DNA of 64,000 nt from a virus. Lineage: Duplodnaviria > Caudoviricetes. A program made the translations under genes and the position numbers. Where the stretch lies: positions 27,928 to 91,927 of IMG/VR virus record IMGVR_UViG_2775506840_000002; one strand, 5' to 3'. The notes beneath the pieces were generated by a model. That model was not told where the DNA came from, made no database searches, and saw only the letters and a program-made list of their open reading frames with translations. Below, in pieces: positions 909-23,884 of the stretch. Within the stretch, counting starts at the first letter, position 1, and every line of letters starts with the position of its first letter.

Positions 909-913
909 AATTA

Positions 914-4073: not shown

Positions 4074-4084
4074 AATCTGTTACC

Positions 4085-4664: not shown

Positions 4665-4705
4665 GCCTTTTTCTAAAAAGGAAAATATTTTCCTACTCTT
4701 TTTCT

Positions 4706-4743
4706 ATCTTCTTTGTGCCACCGCACAGAGGAGATTTTTTTTT
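4706..4743 (+). terminator. Intrinsic terminator upstream of toxin gene
   Basis: 13-bp stem ATCTTCTTTGTGC/GCACAGAGGAGAT + T run. Confidence 0.7.
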
Positions 4744-4805
4744 GGAATCGCACGTGTAAATGCACCTTTTCCTCAAGTAATGACATTCACAAAGGAGGTC
4801 GTACA

Positions 4806-5069: not shown

Positions 5070-5112
5070 ATTATTTATAGGGGAGCAAATCCCCTTTATA
5101 GCAACTAATCTA

Positions 5113-5490: not shown

Positions 5491-5543
5491 TTATAAAACC
5501 TCCTTAGTAGCTTTAAAGAAGGTTTTTCAACCTCCTCTTTTGC

Positions 5544-6077: not shown

Positions 6078-6102
6078 TTTTAACCCTCCAGGTATATTAG
6101 TA

Positions 6103-7096: not shown

Positions 7097-7259
7097 CTAT
7101 TTTCATCCTTTCGTATCCATATATTTCTCTGTACGCTTTTTCTTCAAGGATTAACTTAATGGTCAGTTGACTCATGGTTATATCCTGTTCCCTCGCAAGT
7201 TTCCTTAATATCTCGTATGCCTCTTCATTAACACGTATACTCCAGCACTCTACTTGCAT
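7059..7259 (-). CDS. Small ribbon-helix-helix-like protein
   Basis: SIRVNEEAYEILRKLA...TMSQL pattern. Confidence 0.5.
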   Translation of the reverse strand: MQVECWSIRVNEEAYEILRKLAREQDITMSQLTIKLILEEKAYREIYGYERMKIDEQENEEENFKL

Positions 7260-7263
7260 AGAA

Positions 7264-8124
7264 TCACCCCATTAATTCTTTGAGCATTTCCTCATTTTTG
7301 CTTTTAGCCTTAGTTCTTCTTACACTTTCCTCTGGCATCACTACTTGCATCACCATATCTTCTAATCTATTTATAAGTCTATAATCGAATCCTAGCTTAT
7401 TCATTGGTATGTTAGATGTTATAAGAGTCACTCTCTTATTCGTAAGCCTTCTATTGATAATTCTGTAGAAAATATTGTTTATCCAATCCTTATTTCCCTC
7501 AACACCAATATCATCAAGTATCAATACAGGTATGGTTACAAACTCTTCAACAAGTGCTTCTTCACTGCTACCGCTTTTGTCATTCCATGAATCTCTTATC
7601 TTACCCAGTAGATCAACAGTAGTAATAAATCTAACATGCTGCTTTTTGTACTTAACAAGTGAATTTCCAATACTTACTGCAAGTCTTGTCTTTCCACTTC
7701 CAGCTTCTTTTGAGTAAAAGTAAAGTCCTCTACCAAGTTCCTGCATTTTTTCAAATTTATCTACATACTTCTTGGCTACACTTACGGCTCTACTCGCCTT
7801 TACTTTAGACTCTTCTAGCTTATAAATATCAATATCGAAGTCCTCTATTGCTAAGTTTTGAAACTCTTTTGGTATCTGTGCAAAATCAAGCTTGTTATAG
7901 ATAACTTGCTCTTCATAGCACTTACACTTTTTAGCAAATAACCCCTCCGGTTTATTAACTAAGTAATGTCCTGAACCATCACATATACCATAAGGGCATC
8001 CACATGTTCTTTCTGGCTCAGTCTGTGCTTCTTCATTGAATTCCGTGCTGCTCAGCATATTTTGCGAATTCATCTTCAACTGGTTCGCTATCCTCTGTAT
8101 TTGGTCCTGTGTTATTTGCCCCAT
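7264..8124 (-). CDS. DnaC/IstB-like helicase loader
   Basis: Zn-binding Cys, Walker A GSGKT, LILDDIG, ITSN. Confidence 0.85.
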   Translation of the reverse strand: MGQITQDQIQRIANQLKMNSQNMLSSTEFNEEAQTEPERTCGCPYGICDGSGHYLVNKPEGLFAKKCKCYEEQVIYNKLDFAQIPKEFQNLAIEDFDIDIYKLEESKVKASRAVSVAKKYVDKFEKMQELGRGLYFYSKEAGSGKTRLAVSIGNSLVKYKKQHVRFITTVDLLGKIRDSWNDKSGSSEEALVEEFVTIPVLILDDIGVEGNKDWINNIFYRIINRRLTNKRVTLITSNIPMNKLGFDYRLINRLEDMVMQVVMPEESVRRTKAKSKNEEMLKELMG

Positions 8125-8929
8125 TTCCTTTCACCTTCTTTTGTTCTTTCTTAAGCTCTTGGTCAGCTATGTATTGATTGAGAGTAAGTATTTTCTCTTT
8201 AGTACATCTTTCAAGTATGCTTTTTGTGTACTTGAGGTTTCTTACTCCATTCTCAATGGTTTCTGTTAAAGATTTTTCTATTAGCTCAATCTCCATACCA
8301 TCTTCTATATAGCTTGTTAACATTTCAATTTCATATTGACTAGGCATACGTCCAAAAGTACTCTCTAGCATAGTCGCAATTCTTTTAATGTTAGTAGCAG
8401 CTGTATTCTCCTCACTACTACTTTCCTTTTCTTTCTTTTTACTTTCTATTTTCTTTACTTTACTTTGGGGATTACTGCTAGCATTAACTTCGGTTTTTGT
8501 AACAATAACTAGAGTTTTTGTTGCAGAAACTTCATTTTTGGTTAAAAGTAGGTATTCTTCATAAATTTCCATTGCGCTTCTACGTCCTATTGCGAATATA
8601 AATCTCTGTTGAATTCCATGAGAAGTTAAGATTTTGTACTTGTCATACATTTGCTGATTAAATAACCCCCACTCTAAACATGAGGTTATTACTGCATTAA
8701 CTATAGTTTCTGCTGCATTAACTCGTTTACTAAAGATTAATTGCTCCTTTTTAGTCCACTCTAAGTAGTAACCACTTTTGTAGATTGACTGAAGTAACTT
8801 TATAAAAATTGCAAATCCTACAAGTCCGTGTTCACTTTCTACAAGTTCTAGTTCATCATCTTTTCCAGCAGCAACATCCAGTGGAAAGTATTCTAACCCA
8901 TCCTTTTTAGGCCTTGCCAATTCATTCAC
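8033..8929 (-). CDS. Replication initiator (DUF4373/Lin1244 + DnaD-like)
   Basis: ARPKKDGLEYFPLD, LTSHGIQ, YTKSILE; 21-bp periodic repeats ~8470-8545. Confidence 0.8.
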   Translation of the reverse strand: MNELARPKKDGLEYFPLDVAAGKDDELELVESEHGLVGFAIFIKLLQSIYKSGYYLEWTKKEQLIFSKRVNAAETIVNAVITSCLEWGLFNQQMYDKYKILTSHGIQQRFIFAIGRRSAMEIYEEYLLLTKNEVSATKTLVIVTKTEVNASSNPQSKVKKIESKKKEKESSSEENTAATNIKRIATMLESTFGRMPSQYEIEMLTSYIEDGMEIELIEKSLTETIENGVRNLKYTKSILERCTKEKILTLNQYIADQELKKEQKKVKGNGANNTGPNTEDSEPVEDEFAKYAEQHGIQ

Positions 8930-8935
8930 CCCTTT

Positions 8936-9622
8936 CTAAAAGGGGCATAGGCTTAAATCAATTTCTAGCCCCTTTTCAGCTATGTAAGTTGATTTATTAG
9001 TCAACTCATGTATTTCTCTTTTAAATTCCTCTGCATGACTATTTGAATCACTCAGATGCAATAAAACAATATTCCTAGTCTTACTTAAGTCATTTGCCTG
9101 GAGAAAGTCTTTACAAGTCTCCAGGCTCATATGATCTCGAACTATACGGTCTGCCAGTACTGGATTGAGTCCATTATCTACATGTTCATCAAGTATCTCT
9201 TTTGAATAGTTACACTCTATAAGCCAATGATTAGTTTCCTTAAACGTGTATTCTATATAACCTGTATCTGTTCCAAAAATTAACTGACCTAAGCCTTTAT
9301 GATTAATTTTAAATCCATAACAGGGTACATCATGGTGATTCTTGAATGGTATGTAATTAAATCCACCAAACCTTAGAACCTCTTCATTCCTGTTAACTGT
9401 ATAAGGCGAATAAACCTTAATTCCTCTCATAATGTACTGCCCTACATATCCTGCATGGTCCTTATGTTCGTGACTTACTAAGCATCCGACTATCTTCCTA
9501 TAGTCCACATACCTTATGAGTTCTTTAAACGGTACCCCAGCTTCAATCACTAGGGCCTCCGTTTCAGATTCTAAGATATAACTATTACCAGCCGAACCAC
9601 TTGCTAATACTTTAAGCCTCAT
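8936..9622 (-). CDS. MBL-fold metallohydrolase (phage exonuclease)
   Basis: ASGSAGN, SHEHKDH, TDTG, HLS motifs. Confidence 0.85.
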   Translation of the reverse strand: MRLKVLASGSAGNSYILESETEALVIEAGVPFKELIRYVDYRKIVGCLVSHEHKDHAGYVGQYIMRGIKVYSPYTVNRNEEVLRFGGFNYIPFKNHHDVPCYGFKINHKGLGQLIFGTDTGYIEYTFKETNHWLIECNYSKEILDEHVDNGLNPVLADRIVRDHMSLETCKDFLQANDLSKTRNIVLLHLSDSNSHAEEFKREIHELTNKSTYIAEKGLEIDLSLCPF

Positions 9623-9893
9623 CCTCATTCCTCCTAAATTCATCATCTTCTATGAACTTAATATCTTCTCTATATACATGAATGAATGTAGGATCATCTT
9701 CTGTAAACCCAGCTTCTTTGATAAAACCTATTACTTTAACTATTTTCGAATTGGCATATCCTTCGCAAAAATGTAACTCTGCAAGATGTATATTAGGGAA
9801 CTGCCTTACTTCATCAATACTATATAGTTCTGTCACTTCTCCTGCTCTAGCAAGTGAAAATGTTTCATTAATAACCTTTACTCTTCTAGGCAT
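9612..9893 (-). CDS. Hypothetical phage protein
   Basis: ORF in operon with AGGTGG RBS. Confidence 0.6.
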   Translation of the reverse strand: MPRRVKVINETFSLARAGEVTELYSIDEVRQFPNIHLAELHFCEGYANSKIVKVIGFIKEAGFTEDDPTFIHVYREDIKFIEDDEFRRNEDEA

Positions 9894-9906
9894 TTAGAAC
9901 ACCACC

Positions 9907-10767
9907 TTAAATAGGACATACTATTTCTTCTTGAGTTGGTGCAGTTACTTGCGCTGGTACTTCTTGCTTATCTTCAACAAATGGTACATCTACAAATTCC
10001 TTACTTGCAGTCATTTCCTTTTGTTCTGCTTGTGGTGTAGGTGTAGATTCTTCATCTGCACCTTGATATGTATCAATTAGATCTCCATCATCACTGGAGT
10101 TAATAAGTGTTTTACAAACCCTTGTGATAATAGTTTTTTTACACATTTCATCCGTAAAGTTTGTGTGTGCTCCTGACTTTCCTTTTGCATAGCCTTGATT
10201 CCATGATTTCTGGATTTGGTCGTAACTCATATATACAAGGTCACCTCTTGTACCATCTTTAAAGATTGGAATAGCAAATGCACCTGTAATTTTTGACAAA
10301 TTAACATTAAGTGGATTTGGTTTGTAGGTCTTAAGCTGCATGGTGAGATCATCAATATTGAATTCCATTTCAAATTCATCACCTTCATAGATAACAAAAG
10401 CCTTTACCTCTTCAAGACCTGAAACTCTTTTAGCAATAGCCAGCTTGCCGAAGTATGAAGTCATAAGCTGAAGCTTTCCTCCGAATGCTACAAAGTAGCA
10501 TTGTTTTTTGCTTGGCTCTAGTCCCATCTTAACCATGTCTAAAAGAGAGTTGGCAATACTTTCTTTGGTACAACTTTCAAGCACTGGTTTCTTCGCATTA
10601 TCTACTGTTTCAGCTAAAATTAATGCAGCACTTTGAAGTGCATTTCCTGCTACATAGTTTTGTGGTAATACTAATGACTTGTTCTCTTGAAGCTTGTTTA
10701 CCTTTGCTAATACACTATCTGTAATTTCCTTTTGTGGTTTTACTGCTACTTGGTTATCTGACATCAT
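9907..10767 (-). CDS. recT: RecT-family single-strand annealing protein
   Basis: GLEPSKKQCYFV, VIYEGDEF, EMCKKT motifs. Confidence 0.85.
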   Translation of the reverse strand: MMSDNQVAVKPQKEITDSVLAKVNKLQENKSLVLPQNYVAGNALQSAALILAETVDNAKKPVLESCTKESIANSLLDMVKMGLEPSKKQCYFVAFGGKLQLMTSYFGKLAIAKRVSGLEEVKAFVIYEGDEFEMEFNIDDLTMQLKTYKPNPLNVNLSKITGAFAIPIFKDGTRGDLVYMSYDQIQKSWNQGYAKGKSGAHTNFTDEMCKKTIITRVCKTLINSSDDGDLIDTYQGADEESTPTPQAEQKEMTASKEFVDVPFVEDKQEVPAQVTAPTQEEIVCPI

Positions 10768-10787
10768 TTGTTCCTCCTTGGTTTTAA

Positions 10788-11015
10788 TTAATTTAATGGC
10801 ATTTGAAATACTTCATCATCTTTTGTTTTGTTTTGAATAAAGTTTGCTATAATAGCCATAACTTCTTTTGCTCTTTCCTTTGTTCCGTAATCCCCTAGAT
10901 GCACATAATCTTTTCCATAATTATTTACTATTCTTCCGCTCTCCCAAGCCTTTACTGTCTTGCATAATGTTAATGTTGTTCCATCTTGACTTCTAATCCA
11001 AATACCCTTCATCAT
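10788..11015 (-). CDS. Conserved phage protein (WIRSQD family)
   Basis: WIRSQD...LGxY..KERAKEV motif. Confidence 0.7.
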   Translation of the reverse strand: MMKGIWIRSQDGTTLTLCKTVKAWESGRIVNNYGKDYVHLGDYGTKERAKEVMAIIANFIQNKTKDDEVFQMPLN

Positions 11016-11173
11016 TTAGTTCCCTCGCTTTTCTTTTTGAATTTACATGTCCAACAATCATTACAAGTTGCACACTTTTTCTCTTTTCCATAATGGCTAC
11101 ACATAGCGCATGCTTTTGAACCATTGCATAAATGATTTTCTTTATCCCAGTTACCACATGTATCACGCTTCAT
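11012..11173 (-). CDS. 53-aa Cys-rich protein
   Basis: Manually translated; 7 Cys; overlaps neighbouring stop/start codons. Confidence 0.5.
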   Translation of the reverse strand: MKRDTCGNWDKENHLCNGSKACAMCSHYGKEKKCATCNDCWTCKFKKKSEGTK

Positions 11174-13068
11174 TATTCAATCCTCAACTCCTTATCAACT
11201 GCACTCACAATAAGGTCGATTACTTGACTTTGAGTTGCTGGAATGTCTGTTACAGATTCTCTATTATCAATGAATATAGGCGCATTCATTCCATAGTGTT
11301 CACTTAGAACATTTATAATCTCTATACCAGCTTGAACTTGGGCTGCATTATTTGCATTGCTGAAAGGAACTCCATTAATAAGTGATTCACAGCACTCTGC
11401 AAGTCCACCGTTTATTTGTTGATCAAATAGCTTAAAGCTTACGTTTTTAAACTTGCTATTGATATTAGCTTCTAGCATTTCTACTTTAGCCTTTGTAAAG
11501 TCCTCTATCATGATTTCTACTTGTTCTACATCTGCAAGCTTGCATTGTAAATCCTTAAGTTGCTCCTGAAGCTCTTTTATTCTTGCAAGCGCTTTAGCAT
11601 TGGAATCATGCTTAGATACTCTTAATTTGATATTTTGAATATTAATCTCTTCCATTTTGATAGCTTGCTTAATGGCTTCATTGTCTACGCTTTCAAATGC
11701 TTGTACCTCTTTTTTGAGAACATCTATTTGATTATCTATTTCAGACGTATCACATGGTGTAGTATCTATTGGCTTCTCAAGTATCTTTTCAACCTCATTA
11801 ATATTTGATTGAATACTTACTAATTGGCATGCAATCTCTTCAAATCTAGTAGTTAAATTCTGCATGTTCTGCTGTGTATTTAGTAAATCTGCTTTAATTA
11901 TGTTTGCTTCATTAAGCAAACGTTCTTGTCTTATAGCTTTCTCTTCTATGTATTTGCTTTTAAGCTTTTCAACTTCTTCACTAGGTAGATCCTGTCCACA
12001 AGTAGGACAAATAGCTTTATGCTCATCAAAAGTTTCTTCTTCTATTTTCATCCATTCATTACGTCTGTCTGCTACTTTTGAAGTAAGGATAACTTCATCT
12101 TGTTTTAATGCTTCAATTTTCTTGACAATACTATCTTGCTCATATGTATGATTAGATAACTCACGTTTTAAAGTTTCTAACCTGTCCTTATTTTGGTTGT
12201 ATTCTGCATATGTAGATTTATTATGCGCTCTTATAATCTCTTCTTTTGTGCGCTCTAAACTTAGTATTTGATGTTGTTTTGTACGTATCTCATTAAACTG
12301 TGCATCTGTAGCTTCTAATTGTTTTTCTAACTCTGCTTTATATGCTTCTTTTTCATCTATTTTTGCCTGGAGAACTTCTAACGGTTCAAGCCCTTCTTCT
12401 AGGCTTCTAGTTTGCTCATCAATTCTTGGTGGAATGTTCTCAATATCTGACTTAAGCTTCTTCTTAGTAGCTGCTAAAGACTTCTTGTATTCATCTGCAC
12501 TTTTACCTGCTAATGTTTCTTGAAGTTTTTCATAACCCTCTATTTGGTTATCAGCAATATTGCCACATACTTCAAATAGGAACTTTCTTTTGTCTTGCCA
12601 CTTCATTGCTTCAAAAGCTAATGGATTGGTTAAAAGCTTAAATGTCTTTTCATTAATAATTTCATTAACGTACTCTTGATACTCACTCTTTTTGCAAGGA
12701 ACCCCATCTATATAGTAGATAGTCTCATGACCACTAAACTCCTGTTCTGCTTGTCCACGCTTCTTAACCCACTTTTCTCTAAACAACTTTCCTAGTGTGA
12801 ATGTCTTGCCATTCAATACAAAGTCAGCTGTAACTTCTGTATTAAGAAAATGAATAGGCTCATTGTGTTCTGTGAGTGGTTTAATCTCGAAGTCCTTACG
12901 CTCCTGGCTATCTTTGTCATATAATAACCAACTAAACGCATCTGCTATTGTTGTTTTCCCTGTTCCATTTGCTCCATATATCCTAGTTTCTGTTGTGTCG
13001 AAAAAAATTCTTCTTTCTTTAATTCCCTTGAAATTCTTCAACTCTAGTACTTTTAATAAAAGTTTCAT
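11173..13068 (-). CDS. SbcC/Rad50-like AAA ATPase
   Basis: GANGTGKTT, coiled coil with CPTCG hook, PIFIDN. Confidence 0.85.
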   Translation of the reverse strand: MKLLLKVLELKNFKGIKERRIFFDTTETRIYGANGTGKTTIADAFSWLLYDKDSQERKDFEIKPLTEHNEPIHFLNTEVTADFVLNGKTFTLGKLFREKWVKKRGQAEQEFSGHETIYYIDGVPCKKSEYQEYVNEIINEKTFKLLTNPLAFEAMKWQDKRKFLFEVCGNIADNQIEGYEKLQETLAGKSADEYKKSLAATKKKLKSDIENIPPRIDEQTRSLEEGLEPLEVLQAKIDEKEAYKAELEKQLEATDAQFNEIRTKQHQILSLERTKEEIIRAHNKSTYAEYNQNKDRLETLKRELSNHTYEQDSIVKKIEALKQDEVILTSKVADRRNEWMKIEEETFDEHKAICPTCGQDLPSEEVEKLKSKYIEEKAIRQERLLNEANIIKADLLNTQQNMQNLTTRFEEIACQLVSIQSNINEVEKILEKPIDTTPCDTSEIDNQIDVLKKEVQAFESVDNEAIKQAIKMEEINIQNIKLRVSKHDSNAKALARIKELQEQLKDLQCKLADVEQVEIMIEDFTKAKVEMLEANINSKFKNVSFKLFDQQINGGLAECCESLINGVPFSNANNAAQVQAGIEIINVLSEHYGMNAPIFIDNRESVTDIPATQSQVIDLIVSAVDKELRIE

Positions 13069-13113
13069 CTTACAAATACCTCCTAATTGGTATATAATCT
13101 AACTGATAAATTT

Positions 13114-13521
13114 TTATTTATCTGCACCAGTATGCTTGCCGGCGGCTGGTGCATTTTTAATTGTATCTAATGCTCTTTGGTAAACTGCTGCTTCATGAAT
13201 AAGTTCTTGTACTGCGAATAATACATATTCAACTATTATTTCAAGTTGATGATTGATATCTGCTATAGGCTTATTCATCTTAATCATTTCCCAAAGTTCT
13301 ACTTTATGAATGTGCAACCAATCAAGTTGTTCAAATGCTTCTTCATGTTCTTCTAATGCAAGTCCCCACATTTCATGATGATTGTGCATGTCACCCCATT
13401 TCTCTGTGTTAAACTCAGTTTGTTCTTGCTTAAGCTGCTTGATCATATCAAGTATGTATTGGTCTTTTTCTTCTTTTGACATTATCTTAATCATTGCTAT
13501 GCTCCTTTTTCCTTTCCTCAT
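13114..13521 (-). CDS. Hypothetical protein (MazG-like helical pattern)
   Basis: HEMWGLALEEHEEA...ELIHEAAV. Confidence 0.55.
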   Translation of the reverse strand: MRKGKRSIAMIKIMSKEEKDQYILDMIKQLKQEQTEFNTEKWGDMHNHHEMWGLALEEHEEAFEQLDWLHIHKVELWEMIKMNKPIADINHQLEIIVEYVLFAVQELIHEAAVYQRALDTIKNAPAAGKHTGADK

Positions 13522-13828
13522 TTCTAGCTATGTATGATGCTCCTACCATTGATGTAATTCCTATCAAGTAACCAAATGAAAATATCAAAATATCTTTCAT
13601 AAGTCCTCCTTTTTAGTTAGAAGCTATGTACATTGAAATGCCAAAGATACCAAGTGTTATAAATGATGAGATTATATATTGTGTAAAATTAAGTAAGTCA
13701 CATTCTAATCCGCCTGCAAGGCCCAAAAGCATTACAAATGATAATACCGAAATGGTACCCATTAGCTTTTTCAATTAACTCTCACCTCATTTTTAATTGC
13801 TTGTCCAATTTCATCGCTGTAGATGAAG

Positions 13829-13993
13829 TTAATCATCTACTTCTTGTTTAACATCAATATCTTTAATTGGATTTACAAACTCGTATCCTATCTTATGTAC
13901 TGCATTAATAAGCATTTTTGTAAGCATTATCTTCTGTTCTTCTTTCGAATATGAATCTAAATCCTTTCCGTTAACTGTATAAATTACTTTCAT
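13829..13993 (-). CDS. Small protein behind a sporulation-type promoter (candidate excision factor)
   Basis: AGAGGTG RBS before MKVIY. Confidence 0.55.
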   Translation of the reverse strand: MKVIYTVNGKDLDSYSKEEQKIMLTKMLINAVHKIGYEFVNPIKDIDVKQEVDD

Positions 13994-14009
13994 ACAATCA
14001 CCTCTATTT

Positions 14010-14038
14010 ATATCTATGTTTGTATAAAATTGTCCTAT
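14010..14038 (-). promoter_or_regulatory. Candidate mother-cell (sigmaE/K, SpoIIID-box) promoter
   Basis: ATAGGACAA-N11-CATAGATAT; same element at 59290-59318. Confidence 0.4.
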
Positions 14039-14067
14039 TAGCACTTTTACAATTTATTTGTATTATG

Positions 14068-14790
14068 CTATGCTCCTTTCTTCTCAAATAAACTTGTCTG
14101 TTCATAAGGTCTTTCCATCTTCAATATCCTTATACTCTCATCAATAATATCCATAGAATTTCTAAGCGTTTCTATGTCTATATCCTCCCACTTTCTAGCA
14201 CCTAACCTAATAAGTACACGTTCTTTAACCAGTTCGTATTCTTCATCAGCTTTGGCAATTCCTAAACGTTTCTTTATGTAATGGCTGATACTTGATTTAT
14301 CTGCACATGATGGCTTGTAGTATTCAGAGCATTTCCTTTCTACTTGCTTGATAGCAATTCCTAATTGCTCGTCTACTAAGCCCATGATTTGCCCTTTGAA
14401 CTCGGCTAGGGCTTTGTTTATATCTAGTGAATGAACAACTTGTTCCATCTCATTAAAGCGTTTTACGTACTTAGCTGTAAAAATTATTCCTTTTTCTCCT
14501 GTAAATTTATTTGCTAGAAAGTCACAACCTAATCTAGTGCAGTCATAGCATTTTCTTGGTTTACCTTGTGCGTCTATATATGTACTTTCTATGAAATAAT
14601 CAGCCAACGGAAAATTCCGCTCGCTAAGAACCGGTATAATCCCCTTCGTTTTCACTGTTCCATCTGTTTTATTTGTCCCTTCTAACTTTTGTAAAATATC
14701 TGAATGTCTAACTTCCATCATCTCAGCAACTTCTACTGTAGTAATTGCTGCTGGCTTTTCTTGTTTCTTACATAATGCATTCTTTGGCAT
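14068..14790 (-). CDS. Rha-family phage regulatory protein
   Basis: EVAEMME.RH, YFIESTY, GCDFLANKFTG..G..FTAKYV.RF. Confidence 0.85.
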   Translation of the reverse strand: MPKNALCKKQEKPAAITTVEVAEMMEVRHSDILQKLEGTNKTDGTVKTKGIIPVLSERNFPLADYFIESTYIDAQGKPRKCYDCTRLGCDFLANKFTGEKGIIFTAKYVKRFNEMEQVVHSLDINKALAEFKGQIMGLVDEQLGIAIKQVERKCSEYYKPSCADKSSISHYIKKRLGIAKADEEYELVKERVLIRLGARKWEDIDIETLRNSMDIIDESIRILKMERPYEQTSLFEKKGA

Positions 14791-14793
14791 ATG

Positions 14794-15048
14794 TCATGCT
14801 CCTTTCAGTATTTGTTCTTCTTTCTGAACTTTTTCATTAAAAAAATATGATGGTATCTCTTCTTTTCTTAACCCTAAGACTTCTACTGAACGATTTATCT
14901 CATTTTGTGAAAATTCTAGTTTATTATTTAGTCTGTGGCTAAGTGAGACCCTTCCTATGCCTATCTTTTTAGCAAAATTATCTTGTGTTCCGCAAACTTC
15001 CTTAATTCTGCCTAGAAGCTTATTATAATCAAAACTCATTTTTCTCAC
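14794..15048 (-). CDS. Cro-like HTH (DUF739)
   Basis: FDYNKLLGRIKE..GTQ..FA; divergent from repressor. Confidence 0.85.
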   Translation of the reverse strand: MRKMSFDYNKLLGRIKEVCGTQDNFAKKIGIGRVSLSHRLNNKLEFSQNEINRSVEVLGLRKEEIPSYFFNEKVQKEEQILKGA

Positions 15049-15066
15049 TTCCTCTCTTTTTCATTT

Positions 15067-15183
15067 GTTCGTGTTTCTGAACTAACTAAATCATAAATCA
15101 TGAATTTTTAACTGTCAATATATTTTTTCGTGTTTCTGAACTTTTTTTATTATTATTGGTGCATAATGTTGTCTTTTCTGAAC
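15067..15183. promoter_or_regulatory. Operator cluster GTTC-N8-GAAC
   Basis: Copies at 15067, 15126, 15168 and 14814. Confidence 0.7.
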
Positions 15184-15231
15184 ACATATGATATTATCAG
15201 AATAGATTAACAAAAAAGGAGCCTTTATATC

Positions 15232-15684
15232 ATGAAGAAAACTATATCAGAAAGAATAAGAGAAGGTTTAGCAATAAGAGGCATGAAACAAGCTGATTTA
15301 GTTAATAAAACCGGAATTGGTAAATCCTCTATCAGTACTTATATTTCAGGTTCTTATGAACCTAAACAAACTAATATCTATAAAATTGCTAAGGCATTAG
15401 ATGTTAATGAGGCATGGCTTATGGGGCATGATGTTAAAATGGATAGAGATACCTCAGCCCAAGAACTTAATTTAACTGCAGCCGAACAGGAACATCTTAA
15501 GAGATATAGAACACTGGATGAAAAAGGACAACATACGGTAGATACCGTACTATATATGGAGTATAACCGTTGTACCAATGACTATTTAATGCCAATAGCG
15601 GCACATAATGATAATATTAACGATGAACAATTAGAGAAAATAAATAGAGATATAGAAAACATTTTACTTAAGAAAAAAAGATAA
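15232..15684 (+). CDS. CI-like XRE repressor
   Basis: N-terminal HTH, PIAAH motif typical of ImmA-cleaved repressors. Confidence 0.85.
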   Translation: MKKTISERIREGLAIRGMKQADLVNKTGIGKSSISTYISGSYEPKQTNIYKIAKALDVNEAWLMGHDVKMDRDTSAQELNLTAAEQEHLKRYRTLDEKGQHTVDTVLYMEYNRCTNDYLMPIAAHNDNINDEQLEKINRDIENILLKKKR

Positions 15685-15701
15685 TTTTATAATTTTTAAA
15701 G

Positions 15702-16226
15702 GTGATTTGCTTGAATGAATATGAAATTTTATTGCACAAAAGTTCTAAAGAAGGACTTGAAGTATTTGAAATGGCTTTGGAATCAGATTCTGATGCATTA
15801 TGTGTTGGTGATACATTAGCCTTAAATACAAGACTATTAAGTACAGTACCCGAAAAAAGATGTACTTTAAGTGAGGAAGTCTGGCATAGCAAAACAACTG
15901 TTGGAAATATAATTGATACTCGTGACATTAATAATCTAAAACAAGAATGTTTTGCACGAAAGTGTTCTTTTGAAGATTTAATTCCGCTTGATAACATTGT
16001 GCAAGCATTACTTAATCACTGCTTAAATTTACAAGATGTATGTGAGTACCTGTGTGTAACAGAAAAGTACTTCTGTGAAGCAATTGCTTACTATAAGCAA
16101 AAATATGGTCCATATTATAGATGTAAAGAATACACATTACATTTTGAACCTTTGTCAGTTATAGGTTCATCAAAAGGAGATGGTTTAAATGACAGCAGCT
16201 CTTTATATTCGAGTAAGTACAGATGA
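15702..16226 (+). CDS. ImmA/IrrE-like antirepressor protease
   Basis: EKRCTLSEEVWH...KQE..AR; located between repressor and integrase. Confidence 0.75.
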   Translation: MICLNEYEILLHKSSKEGLEVFEMALESDSDALCVGDTLALNTRLLSTVPEKRCTLSEEVWHSKTTVGNIIDTRDINNLKQECFARKCSFEDLIPLDNIVQALLNHCLNLQDVCEYLCVTEKYFCEAIAYYKQKYGPYYRCKEYTLHFEPLSVIGSSKGDGLNDSSSLYSSKYR

Positions 16227-17649
16227 TCAGCTAGAGTTCTCTCCTGATGCTCAAAAAAGAGCATTACTTGAATACGCTAAAAAGAATAATATATTAGTAG
16301 ATGAACAATATATTTTTGTTGATGAAGGTATTAGTGGCACAAGTGCTAAGAAAAGACCTGCCTTCCAAACTATGATTGCTACAGCGAAGAAAAAGCCTAA
16401 ACCATTTGATACTATTTTAGTTCATAAATTCGATCGTTTTGCACGTTCTAGGGAAGACTCTGTAGTATATAAAAGTCTTCTTCGTAAAGAATGCGACATA
16501 AAAGTTATATCTATAACAGAACAAATGGAAGATGATAAATTCAGTGTTATTCTAGAGGCTATGCTTGAAGCTATGGCAGAATACTACTCTCTTAACTTAA
16601 GTGATGAGGTTATGAAAGGAATGACTGAAAAAGCACGTAGAGGGTTACCACAGTCAGAAGCACCATATGGATATAGGCGCGATGGAGATAAATATGTTTT
16701 AGTAGATGATGAAGCTGAAATTGTAAAAATGATATTCTCAAAATTTAATAGTGGTGAACTTGGATACGGGGAAATTTGCAGGTTTTTACTTCTAAATGGA
16801 ATTACAAATAGAAAGGGTCAATCATTTACTGTTAGTGGAATAAAATATATGCTAGAAAATCCAATTTATTGTGGTAAAGTTCGCTGGAACTACTCTACTC
16901 ATAAAGGTGGGCGTAGGAAAAATCCCAAAGAAGAATGGATCATAACCGATGGTGAGCATCAACGTATTATTAGCGATGAACTATACCAAAGTGTTCAACA
17001 AAAGATTGCTTCATTAAAAAAGGCTCCTGGACACTATACTCCTAATAAAGAAATTAAGCACTGGTTAAGTGGGCTCTTAAGATGTTCAAATTGCAACAAG
17101 GTATTAGTGTATAATAAAGGTTATCATAAGTACCCCTTTTATAGATGTAACGGATATAATAAAGGCGTATGCACTACCAGCAATATGGGGCCATTACATT
17201 TTTATGAAAAAGAAGTTTTGAAAGCATTATCTCTTAAATTTAATGAGCTTAGCCAAGGACTAGGCAACATAGATTCAGTAGTTGTAAAAACAAATAAAGA
17301 AACATCCAATAAAATTCTTCTTCAAAAACAGTTAGAAAAGGTTAGAAGAAAATATGAAATTGCTAAAAAGGCTTATTTGGCTGAAATTGATACTTTAGAA
17401 GAATATGCAAACAATAAATCAGATATTGAAAAAGAAGAAAGAGATCTATTAGATAAACTTTCTAAAGAAATTAGTTCTGAGGATGTATCAAAAATTATAA
17501 CTTCTAAGTTAGAACATGCCATCCAAATATTAAATGATGATTCAAAAAGTAATACTGAAAAAAATACATTTTTAAAGAGCTTTATAAATAGTATAGATGT
17601 AGATAGAAACAATGATATACTAAAGATAAATATGTACGTAGAGTGCTAA
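16189..17649 (+). CDS. Large serine recombinase (integrase 1)
   Basis: YIRVST, DRFAR, PYGY, CxxC Zn ribbon. Confidence 0.95.
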   Translation: MTAALYIRVSTDDQLEFSPDAQKRALLEYAKKNNILVDEQYIFVDEGISGTSAKKRPAFQTMIATAKKKPKPFDTILVHKFDRFARSREDSVVYKSLLRKECDIKVISITEQMEDDKFSVILEAMLEAMAEYYSLNLSDEVMKGMTEKARRGLPQSEAPYGYRRDGDKYVLVDDEAEIVKMIFSKFNSGELGYGEICRFLLLNGITNRKGQSFTVSGIKYMLENPIYCGKVRWNYSTHKGGRRKNPKEEWIITDGEHQRIISDELYQSVQQKIASLKKAPGHYTPNKEIKHWLSGLLRCSNCNKVLVYNKGYHKYPFYRCNGYNKGVCTTSNMGPLHFYEKEVLKALSLKFNELSQGLGNIDSVVVKTNKETSNKILLQKQLEKVRRKYEIAKKAYLAEIDTLEEYANNKSDIEKEERDLLDKLSKEISSEDVSKIITSKLEHAIQILNDDSKSNTEKNTFLKSFINSIDVDRNNDILKINMYVEC

Positions 17650-17668
17650 TCATAAGCACTCTTTTTAT
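17640..17668 (+). terminator. Integrase terminator
   Basis: AGAGTGCT...AGCACTCT + T run. Confidence 0.75.
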
Positions 17669-17669
17669 T

Positions 17670-17715
17670 TGTGTACCTTTAATACTCCAAGGTTACCTGG
17701 AAAAGTTGCCCCTAT
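17670..17715. other. attR of prophage 1 (crossover near GG 17691-17692)
   Basis: SpoVFA similarity starts abruptly at LPGKVAP; the expected preceding Gly codon reads AGG. Confidence 0.65.
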
Positions 17716-17782
17716 GACAGCAGCAGCAATCCTCTATCAAGGTCTTACTCTCATCATGCGCGAACAGGGGGAACAAATATGA
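17693..17782 (+). pseudogene. spoVFA: 3' fragment of dipicolinate synthase subunit A (split by prophage 1)
   Basis: LPGKVAPMTAAAILYQGLTLIMREQGEQI*, resembles the SpoVFA C-terminus; ATGA overlap with spoVFB. Confidence 0.85.
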
Positions 17783-18141
17783 CAGATTTGAAAAATTTAA
17801 AATTAGGTGTTGCACTTTGCGGCTCCTTTTGTACGTTTAAGAAAGCAATGGTTATGCTTCAAAATTTAGTTGACTTAGGTGTTGATGTCTATCCAATTAT
17901 GTCTTTCAATGCGTACTCTATTTCTACACGTTTTGGAAGTGCCACTGACTTTATAGATCAAGTTGAAACGATTACTGGAAAACCAATCATTCATTCTATT
18001 CATGATGCAGAACCTTTAGGACCAAAAAGTATGATTGATGCACTTCTCATTGCACCTTGCACAGGTAATACACTTTCTAAAATTGACCATGCAATTGTTG
18101 ATACACCTGTTGTTTTAGCTGCAAATGCAACCATGATATGA
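17779..18141 (+). pseudogene. spoVFB: 5' fragment of dipicolinate synthase subunit B (split by prophage 2)
   Basis: GSFCT, TRFG, AEPLGP, APCTGNT motifs; stops at 120 aa, before the RPVV/STND part of the ~200-aa protein. Confidence 0.9.
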
Positions 18142-18145
18142 ATAT
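18110..18145. other. attL of prophage 2 (crossover within ~18124-18136)
   Basis: End of SpoVFB similarity. Confidence 0.6.
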
Positions 18146-18584
18146 GGGTTTCTATAAGTACACTTTATCAAATACTTGGCATGAGTTAAAAGCAATTAAA
18201 ACTCTTGGTGATTGTATTAGATTTAATAGACTAAAAGCAAAATTAACTCAGGCTGAGCTTGCGAATAAGATTGGGTTAGATAAAAATACAATCTACTTAC
18301 TAGAAAAAAATAAAGCTCTACTACACGTAAAATTTATTTTAAAAATTGAAGAAATCCTATCCTGCTCTTTAGTTGGATTTGATGAGTATTATGATTTTGC
18401 ACGAGATACTTCTACATATATCATAAATATTAGAAATAAATTAGGATTAAAACGTAAAGGCTTTAGTAAATTGATAGGAGTACATAGTAGTACTTTATTA
18501 AAATGGGAAACAGGTAAGTCATATATAACAAGAATGCATATGAACAAATTAAGCTTTTTTTTCCTTGATAATAATATTTCTTAA
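18138..18584 (+). CDS. Tandem XRE-HTH protein
   Basis: Two HTH motifs; ATGA overlap with the truncated spoVFB stop. Confidence 0.75.
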   Translation: MNMGFYKYTLSNTWHELKAIKTLGDCIRFNRLKAKLTQAELANKIGLDKNTIYLLEKNKALLHVKFILKIEEILSCSLVGFDEYYDFARDTSTYIINIRNKLGLKRKGFSKLIGVHSSTLLKWETGKSYITRMHMNKLSFFFLDNNIS

Positions 18585-18783: not shown

Positions 18784-19889
18784 CTAATAGCATACTTTGC
18801 AAGCCTCGTATCCTTGTTTTTTAGCATCATCAACTGTTAGTTCTCTGCTTGTTGTATTAATATATCTACAAGCTTTATAATGATATTTTTTACCTGTTCC
18901 AGTTACCCAAACCTTTTGGCCTGTTGATTGTATAGTAGTTGACTCTATAATTGTATTAGTAGGATTTGTTGATATCTGTACATTATTTATAGTATTCGAT
19001 ATAGTATCAACTTTAGTTACTATAGGTGTCTGCATCACTTTACCGTCTACTTTTTGTGTAGATATAGTAAGTATTTTCTCATCACTAGTAATAATAATAT
19101 TGCCATTTAAATCAGTTCTATATGTTTTAATGTCTTTAAGTCTGTCGCTTACTTCTTTATGCGGGTGGCCATACTTATTGTCCTTTCCACAAGTAATAAC
19201 AGCTATTTCAGGTTTTACTTTATCCAAAAACTCTTTACTTGTTGAAGTATTACTTCCGTGATGCCCTACTTTAAGTACATCTATATCTATCATTTTATCT
19301 AAGATAGATTTTTCTACATCTTTGCCAGCCAGCATCTCCTGTAAATAAAAATTCATGCTCATCGTTTTTATAAAGCATTATTAAACTTCTATCATTTACA
19401 TCTTTAGATTGACTTTTTGTATTATAAAATTGGAATGTACCATTACCTAAAGTAACTATTTTATCTTCTAATGGTACACTTGGTTTTAAATTTTTATTAG
19501 TAGCAGCTTGAACACAATCTTTATAAGTTTTTGTATCAGCACTACCATTTCCAATTAACACTATGCCAATTTCGAAGTTCTTGATTACTGCATCTAATGC
19601 CCCACAATGGTCTGCATCTGGATGAGTTAATACTATGTAATCTAATTTTTTTACCTCTTGCATCTTAAGGTATTCTACAAGAGACTTTTCATCATCATTT
19701 TCTGCTCCATCTATAAGCATATTTTTACCGTTGTCTTTAATAAGAATTGAATCACTGTTTCCAGTATCAATAAAAATGTACTTCAACCGATTGTATAATT
19801 TGAATTTGCTGGACATTTTTTGCAAATAATGTATTGGTAATTAGTAATAATGACATAATAAATATCAAAAATTTACTAGATCTCTTCAC
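18784..19889 (-). pseudogene. Secreted ComEC/Rec2-like MBL hydrolase with two frameshifts
   Basis: Signal peptide from GTG 19889; THPDADH, TGDA, GHHGS; extra base in run 19772-19776 and 4-bp duplication ~19324-19333. Confidence 0.85.
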
Positions 19890-20929: not shown

Positions 20930-23884
20930 CTATTTATACAATATACTTGATTTAGTAACCTTTATGTCTGAATCACAATAATTTAAATATGTTGCTATTT
21001 CTTCTACATTACTTACTTTAGGCCCAAGTATTACTTCTTCTAAATCTATGTCTTTATTAATTTCTATAAATAAATGAGGCACCCTCCATGTAGAAATTTT
21101 ATCTGTTTGCACATTATTACTCCCAAATCTTATAAGTCTTATTTCTTTCTCATATTTATATTGAGCATATTTATACAGAAATCTTACTTGATCTAATATA
21201 TTGCATATTATTTTTCTCATTGTTATATCTCTTACTTTATCTATACCTAAATCATTTAATATAATACAAATTTCTTCAAAGATTTTTTCATCTATATTCA
21301 TAAAATCTTCTTCTATATAACTTACTTTGTATAAACAATTTGTTATTTTATTATTTTCTTTTAGCAAAATATCCTCATCTTCTTTTAAATTCTCTTCTAC
21401 CCTATGATATGTAAGACTGTGTTTTTCCTCATTATCAAAAAAAGTATTCTTAAATAGTAAACAACACCCTTCTCCATTCTCACTATACGTTGTCCACATA
21501 GGTAAATTATCTTCAGACTCTGAAAAACTTGTTATATACGTTTGACTATAGTTATTTAATATTTTTCTTCCATTTTTTGTACTATCTTCATTATACAAAA
21601 TATCTATAATATCTTTTATAGACTTATACTGATTATTATTTTTACATAGTAATTCTTTATCTATATGACTTAATATATTTTTAAAGACTTCGCCCTCCAT
21701 TGGATCATTCATATAGACCGAATTGTTTAACCTTAATCGTGGCTTACTTTGTTTATCTAAGTCATTTACTCCTTTATTAGGTTTAATTAAAAAGTTAATC
21801 GTATTCATCTTAGTATAATGACAAATTTTTGAGTCTTGATTTACTATTTTAATTCTTGATTTTTTCAGTTCACTAACCTTAATAAATAATTTTATAATTT
21901 GTATGTATGTATTCTCATCCTTTAATGTGTTCTTTAGATATTCTAAGAAAGATCTATTGTCTTTCTCTAACATTAACAAATTTAATTGATCCTTAATATA
22001 TTCTTTTGAGTCTATTGGAAACAATTTCATTCTCTCAGTGTAGTAGCCCTTATTATAAGGATTTAATTTAATTGCATTTTCATAATCTGCCAAAGCTTTT
22101 TCTAGATTTTCTAGCCTCCTATATACCTCTGCTCTCTCTTTAAATGCAAGGCTATTTTGGGGATCTAGCTCTATTGCTCTTGTATAATTTTTTAATGCTT
22201 CTTCATTTTCATCCCATAGACCATATATATATCCTCTGCTATAATATGCATTACTGCTATTAGGCTCTAATTCTACTATTTTATCCGCATCTTCTAATGA
22301 TTTTAACTTATCATTTAGTTTATTATATAATATTGCTCTATTACTATAGTATATAGACGTATCAGGTTTTAATTCAATTGCTTTTGTATAATCTGCTAAC
22401 GCTTGTTCTAGTCTCTTGGTTATGCTATATAATATTCCTCTACGATTGTAGTACAATGCATTAGTAGGTTTCAATTCAATTGCTTTTGTATAATCTGCTA
22501 TAGCCTTTTCTTCTTCCTTAAGATCTCTATATAGTACTCCTCTACGGTTGTAGTACAGTGGATTATCAGGTTTCAATTCAATTGCTTTTGTATAATCCTC
22601 TACTGCCTTCTCTTGTTCATTAAGTTCTCTATATAGCAGCCCTCTACTACTGTAGTACTGTGAATTATTAGGTTTCAATTCAATTGCTTTTGTATAATCC
22701 TCTACTGCCTTCTCTTGTTCATTAAGTTCTCTATATAGCAGCCCTCTACTACTGTAGTACTGTGGATTATCAGGTTTCAATTCAATTGCTTTTGTATAAT
22801 CCTCTACTGCCTTCTCTTGTTCATTGAGTTCTCTATATAGCGCCCCTCTAAACTTATAGTACTGTGCATTACCAGGTCTCAATTCAATTATTTTTGTATA
22901 ATCTGCTAATGCCTTCTCTTGTTCATTGAGTTCTTTATATAGGGATCCTCTAAACTTATAGTACAATACATTTTTAGGCTCTAATTCAATTGATTTTGTA
23001 TAATCTGCTAATGCCTTCTCTTGTTCATTGAGTTTTCTATATAGCGCCCCTCTAAGTTTATAGTACAATGCTTTATTAGGATCTAATTCAATTGCTTTTG
23101 TATAATCTGCTAATGCCTTTTCTTCTTCTTGTGACTCTCTATATATCATTCCTCTAACCTTATAATACAATGCATTAGTCGGATCTAATTCAATTGCCTT
23201 TGTATAATCCGCTACTGCCTTCTCTACTTGTGACTCTTTATATATTAATCCTCTATAAGCGTAGTACTGTGCATTAGTCGGATCTAATTCAATTGCTTTT
23301 GTATAATCTGCTAATGCCTTTTCTTCTTGTGACTCTTTATATATTAATCCTCTATAAGCGTAGTACTGTGCATTAGTCGGATCTAATTCAATTGCTTTTG
23401 TATAATCTGCTAATGCCTTTTCTTCTTCTTGTGACTCTTTATATATTAATCCTCTATAAGCGTAGTAGTGTGTATTAGTCGGATCTAATTCAATTGCTTT
23501 TGTATAATCTGCTAATGCCTTTTCTAATTTTTCTTCTTCTTGTGACTCTTTATATAGCATTCCTCTATAAGCGTAGTACTGTGTATTAGTCGGATCTAAT
23601 TCAATTGCTTTTGTATAATCTGCTAATGCCTTTTCTAATTTTTCTTCTTGTGACTCTTTATATAGCATTCCTCTATAAGCGTAGTACTGTGCATTAGTCG
23701 GATCTAATTCAATTGCTTTTGTATAATCTACTAACGCCTTTTCTTCTTCTTCCAACTCTCTATATAGTCTAGCTCTACTATTATATGCGCTGGCATCCTT
23801 TCTATCTAACTCTATTTTTCTTGTATAAATTTCTATCTCTCTCTTAATACTATCAGTAGTTTCTTCCTGCATTTGTGCTTTCAT
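20930..23884 (-). CDS. TPR-repeat protein with C-terminal DUF2971-like domain
   Basis: ~17 TPRs; HYT, MNDPMEG, SFS..DNLPMW..Y, YEKEIR motifs. Confidence 0.8.
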   Translation of the reverse strand: MKAQMQEETTDSIKREIEIYTRKIELDRKDASAYNSRARLYRELEEEEKALVDYTKAIELDPTNAQYYAYRGMLYKESQEEKLEKALADYTKAIELDPTNTQYYAYRGMLYKESQEEEKLEKALADYTKAIELDPTNTHYYAYRGLIYKESQEEEKALADYTKAIELDPTNAQYYAYRGLIYKESQEEKALADYTKAIELDPTNAQYYAYRGLIYKESQVEKAVADYTKAIELDPTNALYYKVRGMIYRESQEEEKALADYTKAIELDPNKALYYKLRGALYRKLNEQEKALADYTKSIELEPKNVLYYKFRGSLYKELNEQEKALADYTKIIELRPGNAQYYKFRGALYRELNEQEKAVEDYTKAIELKPDNPQYYSSRGLLYRELNEQEKAVEDYTKAIELKPNNSQYYSSRGLLYRELNEQEKAVEDYTKAIELKPDNPLYYNRRGVLYRDLKEEEKAIADYTKAIELKPTNALYYNRRGILYSITKRLEQALADYTKAIELKPDTSIYYSNRAILYNKLNDKLKSLEDADKIVELEPNSSNAYYSRGYIYGLWDENEEALKNYTRAIELDPQNSLAFKERAEVYRRLENLEKALADYENAIKLNPYNKGYYTERMKLFPIDSKEYIKDQLNLLMLEKDNRSFLEYLKNTLKDENTYIQIIKLFIKVSELKKSRIKIVNQDSKICHYTKMNTINFLIKPNKGVNDLDKQSKPRLRLNNSVYMNDPMEGEVFKNILSHIDKELLCKNNNQYKSIKDIIDILYNEDSTKNGRKILNNYSQTYITSFSESEDNLPMWTTYSENGEGCCLLFKNTFFDNEEKHSLTYHRVEENLKEDEDILLKENNKITNCLYKVSYIEEDFMNIDEKIFEEICIILNDLGIDKVRDITMRKIICNILDQVRFLYKYAQYKYEKEIRLIRFGSNNVQTDKISTWRVPHLFIEINKDIDLEEVILGPKVSNVEEIATYLNYCDSDIKVTKSSILYK
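22370..23760. repeat. Near-identical ~99-111-bp tandem repeats encoding TPRs
   Basis: Recurrent aattcaattgcttttgtataatc core, ~14 copies. Confidence 0.9.

Follow-up and report, generated by a model that had tools for sequence, protein, structure and literature searches.

The stretch of DNA analyzed here, 64,000 nucleotides from a virus of the Caudoviricetes (positions 27,928 to 91,927 of IMG/VR record IMGVR_UViG_2775506840_000002; hereafter the window), contains a piece of a bicistronic spoVFA-spoVFB operon, which encodes the two subunits of dipicolinate synthase and is interrupted twice, each gene by its own prophage. We propose that both prophages are probably excised in the sporulating mother cell, rebuilding spoVFA and spoVFB, such that the pair would function as a developmental AND gate on a single enzyme. 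The record is 91,927 bases long, contains no N and was cut from a larger contig; the window is its right-hand 64 kilobases (kb). Its central features are:

1–17684 (unstranded): right-hand 17.7 kb of prophage 1, recognized by PHROGs hits; 92–99% identity to a prophage of Holtiella tumoricola CC70A
16189–17649 (+): Int1, large serine recombinase of 486 amino acids (aa); Pfam Resolvase, Recombinase and Zn_ribbon_recom
17640–17672 (+): intrinsic-terminator-like hairpin (17640–17662) and T run after Int1
17693–17782 (+): 3' fragment of spoVFA (dpaA), 29 C-terminal codons and stop, equal to the C-terminus of the intact SpoVFA P0365
17779–18125 (+): 5' part of spoVFB (dpaB), 115 whole codons and 2 bases; Pfam Flavoprotein
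18126–64000 (unstranded): prophage 2, about 45.9 kb of which lies in the window; PHROGs hits
62378–64000 (+): Int2, large serine recombinase of 540 aa plus stop; Pfam Resolvase, Recombinase and Zn_ribbon_recom

The host island and the two gene breaks

The host island between the two prophages is 441 bases long (17685–18125) and carries 29 C-terminal codons of spoVFA together with codons 1–115 of spoVFB. The translation of 17693–17782, LPGKVAPMTAAAILYQGLTLIMREQGEQI, is letter for letter the C-terminus of P0365, an intact SpoVFA of 290 aa from a public assembly, and its TGA overlaps the spoVFB ATG at 17779 (ATGA). The spoVFB frame stays open for 120 codons and ends at 18141, the final five codons being phage DNA; a sequence-only reading of the window had placed the fragment, the overlap and the 120-codon frame exactly here. 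Against Pfam Flavoprotein this frame covers profile positions 2–93 of 162, i.e., the first half. Its residues 1–115 are identical (115/115) to the intact 195-aa SpoVFB of H. tumoricola (L001), after which the window reads …VVLAAN ATMI* versus …VVLAAKSLMRNGKP… in H. tumoricola; this bears out the earlier claim that spoVFB is interrupted where prophage 2 begins. The island as a whole is identical to that of H. tumoricola, with none of its 441 bases changed. An uninterrupted spoVFA-spoVFB operon is found on contigs of two public runs, X3 (DNA) and X4 (RNA library), which match the window at 17685–18125 only, continuing beyond it into the spoVFA 5' part on one side and the spoVFB 3' part on the other. 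Both junctions are therefore fixed and the island is 441 bases; moreover, strains with both sites empty must exist. Contigs of run X6 showed only short scattered matches to the window. Both junctions fall inside the spoVFA and spoVFB coding frames, as is characteristic of the intervening-element class.

The identity of the two genes rests on different kinds of support. The intact SpoVFB of H. tumoricola, to which the join of the window piece with its missing half is identical (see below), scores 253 bits against the NCBIfam model TIGR02852 spore_dpaB (cut-off 229). The spoVFA 5' part scores 188 bits against TIGR02853 spore_dpaA, below the curated cut-off of 319.65; intact spoVFA copies of the family reach at most 246 bits, and none of 47 genomes passes that cut-off. 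We take the gene to be a probable spoVFA from its PF16924 and PF02826 matches, the source label “dipicolinate synthase subunit DpsA” and its position directly upstream of spoVFB. The passages of 10.1101/2022.02.25.481979 that concern dpaAB place it under mother-cell sigmaK control.

The outer gene halves and their joins

The outer halves of the operon lie outside the record and were found as proteins only. One of these, P0241 (274 aa), consists of SpoVFA residues 1–264 followed by 10 phage-coded residues, IIKVHNFYSH; the other, P0121 (83 aa), consists of MV followed by SpoVFB residues 116–195. Both bear the source label Niameybacter massiliensis and are encoded on a contig of 3,391,002 bases; exact protein look-ups of Int1 and of the 120-aa spoVFB piece led to a contig of the same length, as did Int2, which is 100% identical to P0001 (540 aa). 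The RefSeq numbers of P0241 and P0121 are 128 apart, about the gene content of two prophages, a weak hint that assumes serial numbering. In the genome from which the window comes, P0241, prophage 1, the island, prophage 2 and P0121 presumably lie in that order on one strand.

When joined by script to the pieces in the window, the outer halves give a SpoVFA of 290 aa, of which 282 are identical to P0365, and a SpoVFB of 195 aa identical at 195/195 positions to the intact H. tumoricola protein. Both joins are in frame and full-length, so that precise excision would restore the two reading frames, with the outer halves taken as proteins. The sequence-only reading had staked its case on the other halves being present and joining in frame, and on there being no intact spoVFAB elsewhere. 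The first expectation is borne out by P0241, P0121 and the joins of 290 and 195 aa. As for the second, the closest genome that could be searched (G001) has no second copy of spoVFA or spoVFB, each giving one hit over the cut-off; on the 3,391,002-base contig only the truncated protein appeared among the best 120 hits, and the cluster of intact SpoVFB has no member on that contig. Because separate prophages split each gene, the joins are in frame and G001 lacks a second copy, two precise excisions are logically required for a SpoVF-type dipicolinate synthase. In H. tumoricola, the spoVFA 5' part is on a separate contig and ends …SLPG IIKVHNFYNH*, followed by prophage DNA; the split spoVFA is the sole copy of this isolate.

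Two unrelated prophages with recombinases at their edges

Prophage 1 continues for 27,927 bases to the left of the window, with 45.6 kb of it in the record; the record starts inside its accessory end, and the left end and attL lie outside. It is a myovirus-like element of roughly 46–50 kb inserted after spoVFA codon 264, with PHROGs hits to terminase, major head, sheath, tape measure and endolysin in the left part of the record and to RecT-like, SbcC-like, anti-repressor and repressor proteins in the window. Prophage 2 is likewise myovirus-like, of roughly 46 kb, sits in spoVFB codon 116 and is unrelated to prophage 1, with which it shares only about 0.9 kb at 78% identity; its PHROGs hits include terminase, portal, major head, sheath, tape measure, endolysin, replication initiator and partition protein. 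Thus, both flanks have full phage gene sets and a large serine recombinase of their own, and the earlier claim that each gene is split by its own full prophage stands.

The lysogeny genes of the two elements are:

15232–15684 (+): cI-like repressor of prophage 1 (PHROGs transcriptional regulator/repressor families), heading the lysogeny operon that ends with Int1
59615–62310 (+): lysogeny operon of prophage 2, with a cI-like helix-turn-helix (HTH) gene, an ImmA/IrrE-like peptidase, a HipA-like kinase and an open reading frame (ORF) of 265 aa; Pfam HTH_3, Peptidase_M78 and HipA_2

Int1 and Int2 each lie at the right edge of their prophage as the last gene of the plus-strand repressor (lysogeny) operon and read towards the downstream gene piece, so that each serine recombinase stands at the edge of its own element beside a piece of the split gene. 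In both, PF00239, PF07508 and PF13408 score over their cut-offs, the domain set of large serine recombinases; the two proteins are nonetheless very distant from each other in a quick recombinase tree. Int1 ends 36 bases from the host island and is 99% identical to the H. tumoricola copy. Since 33 of the 39 nucleotide differences between the two are synonymous and 6 non-synonymous, the recombinase is under purifying selection. The stop codon of Int2 is the end of the record, the last three bases of the window being TGA; the cut that produced the record hence fell on a gene boundary, leaving the attR of prophage 2 just outside. Int2 has a single relative in IMG/VR (50% identity), whose contig ends 33 bases past the gene, and no close counterpart in H. 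tumoricola, where the best match is 37%.

Attachment sites

Two of the four attachment sites fall in the window:

17685–17703 (+): attR of prophage 1; 19-base core CTCCAAG[G/C]TTACCTGGAA common to the H. tumoricola attL
18120–18137 (+): attL of prophage 2; core TGCAAA (18120–18125) followed by the phage arm TGCAACCATGAT

At the spoVFA codon-264 site, imperfect inverted arms surround the 19-base core. The sole mismatch in the core is at 17692, where G gives R in the window frame while the intact protein has S; the crossover is therefore to the right of 17692, and excision restores S. At the spoVFB codon-116 site, the attB reads …TTAGCTGCAAAATCTCTT…, the attL of the window reads …TTAGCTGCAAA / TGCAACCATGAT…, and the attR of three relatives reads …ATCATGGT[T/A]GC[A/C]AAATC…. 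The phage arm TGCAACCATGAT is the reverse complement of the relatives' attR arm ATCATGGTTGCA. Aligning attB, attL and attR therefore predicts an attP with inverted arms, ATCATGGTTGCA and TGCAACCATGAT, around a central AA, the right arm being taken from the window and the left arm from the relatives and the N-terminus of P0121. The start of P0121, MVAK, is that predicted from the relatives' attR arm, and inverted-repeat arms are the form expected of attP for large serine recombinases. The exact junction strings of the prophage 2 attL and the prophage 1 attR gave no matches in JGI metagenome contigs or IMG/VR, a search in which one changed base loses the match and which hence does not imply rarity.

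A three-site hotspot in related genomes

The closest genome found, that of the sister isolate H. tumoricola CC70A (L001, G001), carries prophage 1 only: the same recombinase (99%) is followed by the same 29-codon fragment and then by an intact 195-aa SpoVFB. The survey covered 47 species genomes from the family to which G001 belongs (Cellulosilyticaceae is the name given for related loci). In 8 of the 47 (G004, G012, G014, G023, G025, G027, G028 and G044), spoVFB is broken at model positions 101–113; both pieces were found in six of these eight, and the pieces are free of stops except for two with one stop each (G023, G027). Wherever the context in the relatives is readable, a recombinase gene lies directly upstream of, or overlaps, the spoVFB 3' piece. 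Halves of spoVFA from its 3' side, starting at positions of about 114–129, are found in 10 of the 47 genomes, with a recombinase just upstream, by coordinates, in at least six (G008, G025, G036, G042, G045 and G047); G018 (spoVFA 57–284, at a contig end) was left out of the split count. Besides the window, G001 is the only one of the 47 in which the codon-264 site is occupied. These break points define three recombinase landing sites in the operon: spoVFA at about codon 125 (A1), spoVFA at codon 264 (A2) and spoVFB at about codon 116 (B). The site combinations seen are none, A2, A2+B, A1+B and A1+A2.

The A1+B combination comes from G025, in which a single contig of 1,439,754 bases holds a double split on a single strand, at a different spoVFA site from that of the window: the spoVFA 5' part is followed by a 46.8-kb element ending in a recombinase, the spoVFA 3' part, the spoVFB 5' part, a 4.7-kb element that likewise has a recombinase at its end, and finally the spoVFB 3' part. 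According to the sequence-only reading, a double arrangement is not known to have been described; we likewise found no paper in the open-access literature on a split spoVFA/dpaA or on two elements in one operon, while G025 shows that the arrangement is not unique to the window. A1+A2 is seen in P0367, a 161-aa protein on a 6,318-base metagenome contig that covers spoVFA residues of about 125–264, bounded by the codon-125 and codon-264 junctions. This protein starts with recombinase-side letters resembling those at the codon-125 junction and ends with the junction tail of prophage 1; one gene would here contain two elements.

We built a quick tree of 18 recombinases (21 ORFs minus the duplicates L031, L032, L002 and L024, plus Int1). 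In it, seven of the eight recombinases at the spoVFB site form one clade (support of 98 in the Shimodaira–Hasegawa-like approximate likelihood ratio test, SH-aLRT), one Ruminiclostridium spoVFB-site recombinase falling outside it; the spoVFA codon-125 recombinases form a separate clade (SH-aLRT 100), and Int1 lies on a very long branch distant from the two clades. One locus, in G028 (L072 2623–4228, G028:C2), has an Int2-like recombinase (82%) that is broken by a stop, lacks the coiled-coil part and lies directly before the spoVFB 3' part; neither a spoVFB 5' part nor spoVFA was found in G028, and the locus looks decayed. In an order-level sample of 401 genomes, only G077 and G100 outside the family had best spoVFB E-values in the range of gene pieces among the matches listed.

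In G025 and G027, only 4.6–4.7 kb remain in spoVFB, with the recombinase intact. Open gene halves and intact recombinases thus persist in many species, even in relics, which suggests that they are being kept up; this comparative argument is stronger than that from the differences between the window and H. tumoricola.

Two side observations concern these genomes. In the small elements of G025 and G027 (L070 7391–9704; L084 1368–3600), the recombinase is accompanied by genes for an agrC-like histidine kinase and an agrB-like membrane protein and by a short agrD-like ORF. Excision would take this quorum-sensing-like cassette out of the mother-cell chromosome. Furthermore, G025 has a divergent stand-alone spoVFB-like paralogue without an adjoining spoVFA (L071 3624–4211, G025:C2), which we did not count as a backup operon and which might complement the split gene; a second, divergent stand-alone spoVFB-like gene with the same potential and likewise no adjoining spoVFA is found in G023, G026, G027 and G033.

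Candidate excision factors and a shared promoter-like motif

Excision of each element would be licensed by a recombination directionality factor (RDF), and each prophage has one candidate with a motif in front of it:

13829–13993 (-): small ORF p1, 54 aa, candidate RDF of prophage 1, in the early operon directly behind the anti-repressor gene
14015–14038 (-): promoter-like motif before p1, ATAGGACAA-N11-CATA (ATA-N17-CATA, sigmaE-like)
59064–59270 (-): small ORF p2, 68 aa, candidate RDF of prophage 2, with a same-position counterpart in the G044 element
59295–59318 (-): promoter-like motif before p2, ATAGGACAA-N11-CATA, as before p1

Both ORFs lie on the minus strand behind cro/anti-repressor genes, and p1 is identical in H. 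tumoricola. For p2, the same-position ORF in the G044 spoVFB prophage is 33% identical (E 8e-16). A profile of these two, when compared with one of the small ORFs of G025 and G027, gave a probability of 82% and an E-value of 1e-5, a modest result with two sequences on each side; tblastn did not detect the G025 and G027 ORFs from p2, and the link is by profile comparison only. With it, the p2 family is present in all four spoVFB elements with a readable interior (the window, G044, G025 and G027). A tblastn match of the G027 small ORF in L006 (E 0.015) was rejected, as L006 has an intact spoVFAB and the match is in an unrelated gene region.

The motif occurs in the window, at up to one mismatch, in exactly two copies, those before p1 and p2, versus 0.33 expected. 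A relaxed form, ATA[GT][GT]ACAA-N10-11-CATA, gave 10 hits at eight distinct places in 567,814 bases of a locus set enriched for recombinase elements, all of them in recombinase-bearing elements. At six of the seven places read, a small ORF follows; at the seventh, in G012, the locus ends shortly past the motif, and the remaining place is that of p1 in H. tumoricola. In the relevant part of PMC3789822, the C. difficile sigmaE promoter before spoIIID is given as ATA-N16-CATATATA; by form, the ATA-N16-17-CATA before p1, p2 and their counterparts resembles such clostridial sigmaE promoters. The small ORF and the motif are also kept in the 4.6–4.7-kb relics, which lack lytic genes and otherwise hold only the recombinase and agrB/agrC-like genes. 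From position, conservation and motif, we infer that p1 and p2 are RDFs with a mother-cell promoter.

A model for programmed excision and its alternatives

In the model that we favor, Int1 and Int2 would be made constitutively, in the manner of SPbeta in spsM and of skin in sigK of C. difficile, and excision would be licensed by a small directionality factor, p1 for Int1 and p2 for Int2, produced both from the phage early operon and from its own mother-cell (sigmaE-type) promoter. The recombinase genes stand at the ends of cI-like-repressor operons, which suggests that the lysogen expresses them, much like SprA and CD1231, in which case control would rest on the directionality factor. In the sporulating mother cell, both prophages would be cut out and spoVFA and spoVFB rebuilt, upon which the operon would be expressed and dipicolinate made for the forespore, the chromosome of which would retain both prophages. 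Since dipicolinate synthase is not functional without either subunit, a pair of independent excisions would amount to a logical AND. Insertion would cost nothing in growth, the operon being active solely in a cell destined for lysis, and this would explain why conserved motifs of the operon are favored landing sites.

A number of observations weigh against programmed excision or limit the case for it. No excision products or joints were found in the contigs of four public runs, which are assembled contigs only and uninformative on excision. The attL of prophage 1 and the attR of prophage 2 of this strain are inferred from the sister strain, the relatives and two proteins. The island is 100% identical to that of the sister strain and is therefore silent on selection; its intact fragments may reflect recency. 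As to the candidate factors, p1 belongs to no Pfam family and found only itself among 1.84 billion representatives; the last position of the -10-like box does not fit the sigmaE consensus, the motif may instead be an operator of the phage, and its apparent specificity is partly by construction in view of how the locus set was enriched. Some Clostridia make dipicolinate without SpoVF, via EtfA. Finally, both prophages look lytic-competent, so that ordinary induction would in any case call for their recombinases and small ORFs.

This last point leads to plain insertional inactivation, in which conserved spoVFA and spoVFB motifs would serve as attB in an operon dispensable in growth and the prophages would exit only on lytic induction. 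There would then be no SpoVF-type dipicolinate: the spores would lack it, the lineage would be asporogenous, or another route would supply it. We consider this unlikely, while according it real weight. It accommodates the complete and inducible appearance of both prophages, and ordinary phage biology is enough to account for a recombinase, a small early ORF and a lysogeny operon. The species description (PMC5477064) yielded no sporulation phenotype, a term search finding no word beginning with “spore” or “sporul”. Decay is seen in the family, where the Int2-like gene of G028 (82%) is broken and only the spoVFB 3' part is left, and the MBL-fold gene of prophage 2 described below is in two frames. 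However, split genes with both halves open recur in 6–10 of the 47 related species, the sole spoVFA of H. tumoricola is the split one, and the 4.6–4.7-kb relics retain only the recombinase, the small ORF with its promoter-like motif and the agr-like cassette, and no lytic genes, a state that is hard to explain unless excision is still needed.

The two prophages could also differ in standing, prophage 1 being an established developmental element and prophage 2 a recent knock-out of spoVFB, or the reverse. Prophage 1 is indeed present at 92–99% identity in a second isolate with an intact spoVFB and no close Int2 (best match 37%), and the lack of matches to the exact junction strings of either prophage in JGI metagenomes and IMG/VR would fit; yet Int2 belongs to a clade that occupies the same spoVFB site in seven other genomes, two with domesticated relics, and p2 and its motif are conserved with the spoVFB-site elements of those genomes, making such a mixed case improbable. 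That the record joins two lysogens across a shared 441-base island, with no chromosome bearing both prophages, is suggested by the shortness of the island. This assembly artefact is very improbable, given that the four gene pieces and both recombinases are on one 3,391,002-base contig in the protein collection, that the record is free of N and that the independent double split of G025 lies on one 1,439,754-base contig, on the same strand and in order.

Programmed excision might also proceed as an ordered relay, in which the exit of prophage 1 lets the host sporulation promoter trigger the exit of prophage 2, so that dipicolinate synthesis would be timed in two steps. The gene on which this would turn is:

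18138–18584 (+): tandem-HTH regulator, first gene of prophage 2; Pfam HTH_3 in two stretches

This gene is codirectional with the truncated spoVFB, whose stop codon its ATG overlaps. As long as prophage 1 is present, more than 46 kb and the terminator after Int1 would separate the spoVF promoter from the island; once it is gone, transcription from the rebuilt spoVFA would cross the spoVFB 5' piece into the tandem-HTH gene, the product of which would then switch on excision of prophage 2. The spoVFB prophage of G044 has a homologue in the same place and direction (46% over 97 aa; L074 1013–1342, minus strand), 30 bases after the truncated frame; the 4.6–4.7-kb relics of G025 and G027 have none. 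We hold this elaboration to be doubtful.

Other features of prophage 2

Between the ImmA-like peptidase and Int2, the HipA-like kinase and the 265-aa ORF, which has no known family (60717–62310), may constitute a module for abortive infection or a toxin-antitoxin pair. A gene of the MBL fold (ComEC-like; 18784–19825, minus strand) at the left end of the prophage is present as two overlapping frames of 192 and 176 aa. In H. tumoricola, the left end of prophage 1 holds a counterpart of 359 aa with 79% DNA identity (L014 2429–3508, minus strand); two unrelated phages carry the same accessory gene beside attL. Further in (20930–23884, minus strand), a 984-aa protein has about 16 TPR units and a C-terminal DUF2971, with repeats that are 70–87% similar in DNA between shifted copies.

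Significance and comparison with known systems

The close strains with zero, one and two prophages form a natural series in which an effect of phage excision on the timing or heterogeneity of dipicolinate loading and of spore heat resistance could be tested. The candidate recombinase/RDF pairs look mutually independent and sporulation-controlled. The finding adds spoVFA (dpaA) as a target, one that we did not encounter in the open-access literature, and carries a warning for annotation: dpaA or dpaB genes recorded as “missing” or “partial” in Clostridia may be split genes rather than losses.

To our knowledge, excision of elements from sporulation genes is a textbook programmed DNA rearrangement whose described cases involve one element in one gene. 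In B. subtilis 168, skin and SPbeta are both excised in the same mother cell; these sit in unrelated genes at different loci, whereas the elements described here are 441 bases apart and would gate two subunits of one enzyme. The genes named as interrupted in the relevant portions of the literature are sigK, spsM, spoVFB (by vfbin), spoVR, gerE and yabG (PMC4191935, PMC10747680, PMC5595907, PMC5025042, PMC6957869, PMC12540744, PMC3789822, PMC3416734, 10.1101/2022.02.25.481979).

The closest precedent by target is the vfbin element, which interrupts spoVFB in Bacillus weihenstephanensis KBAB4 (Abe et al. 2013, cited by PMC4191935, PMC10747680 and PMC12540744). As summarized there, it is a phage-derived element in the same gene, which is rebuilt by excision in sporulation; unlike the elements of the window, it is described as a defective element of a Bacillus with a sporulation-specific recombinase (PMC5595907). 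Here, by comparison of descriptions, the element is a complete-looking prophage in a lineage of the Clostridia, with its recombinase in a lysogeny operon. By state of the phage, the nearest case is SPbeta in B. subtilis spsM, with the SprA recombinase and the SprB RDF (PMC4191935, PMC5499854, PMC5595907). According to the sections of these papers on SPbeta, it is a full active prophage in a mother-cell gene that is rebuilt by its excision in the mother cell, and it uses a constitutive serine integrase together with a small RDF that serves both lytic induction and sporulation. SPbeta is, however, one prophage in one gene, the target of which is spore polysaccharide, as against two unrelated prophages and recombinases in one operon.

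For control, the C. difficile skin element offers the nearest parallel: as reported in the pertinent part of PMC5025042, the recombinase CD1231 is constitutive and present in all cells, and the 72-aa RDF CD1234, which belongs to no known family, has a sigmaE promoter and a SpoIIID box. The CD1231/CD1234 logic is that proposed by analogy for p1 and p2, CD1234 and the two ORFs being likened by logic and not by sequence; the difference lies in the target, sigK, and in skin being a 14.6-kb relic, as stated in 10.1101/2022.02.25.481979. At the minimal end, gin in Bacillus cereus gerE is described as having GirC and the 42-aa GirX (PMC5595907, in its account of gin). Its combination of a recombinase with a tiny RDF resembles the 4.6–4.7-kb spoVFB elements of G025 and G027; it differs in having no phage genes and another target, and the G025 and G027 relics carry the agrB/agrC-like cassette. 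Together, these comparisons suggest that the arrangement in the window would be a variant of the skin/SPbeta/vfbin class in which two unrelated and apparently live prophages gate both subunits of one enzyme.

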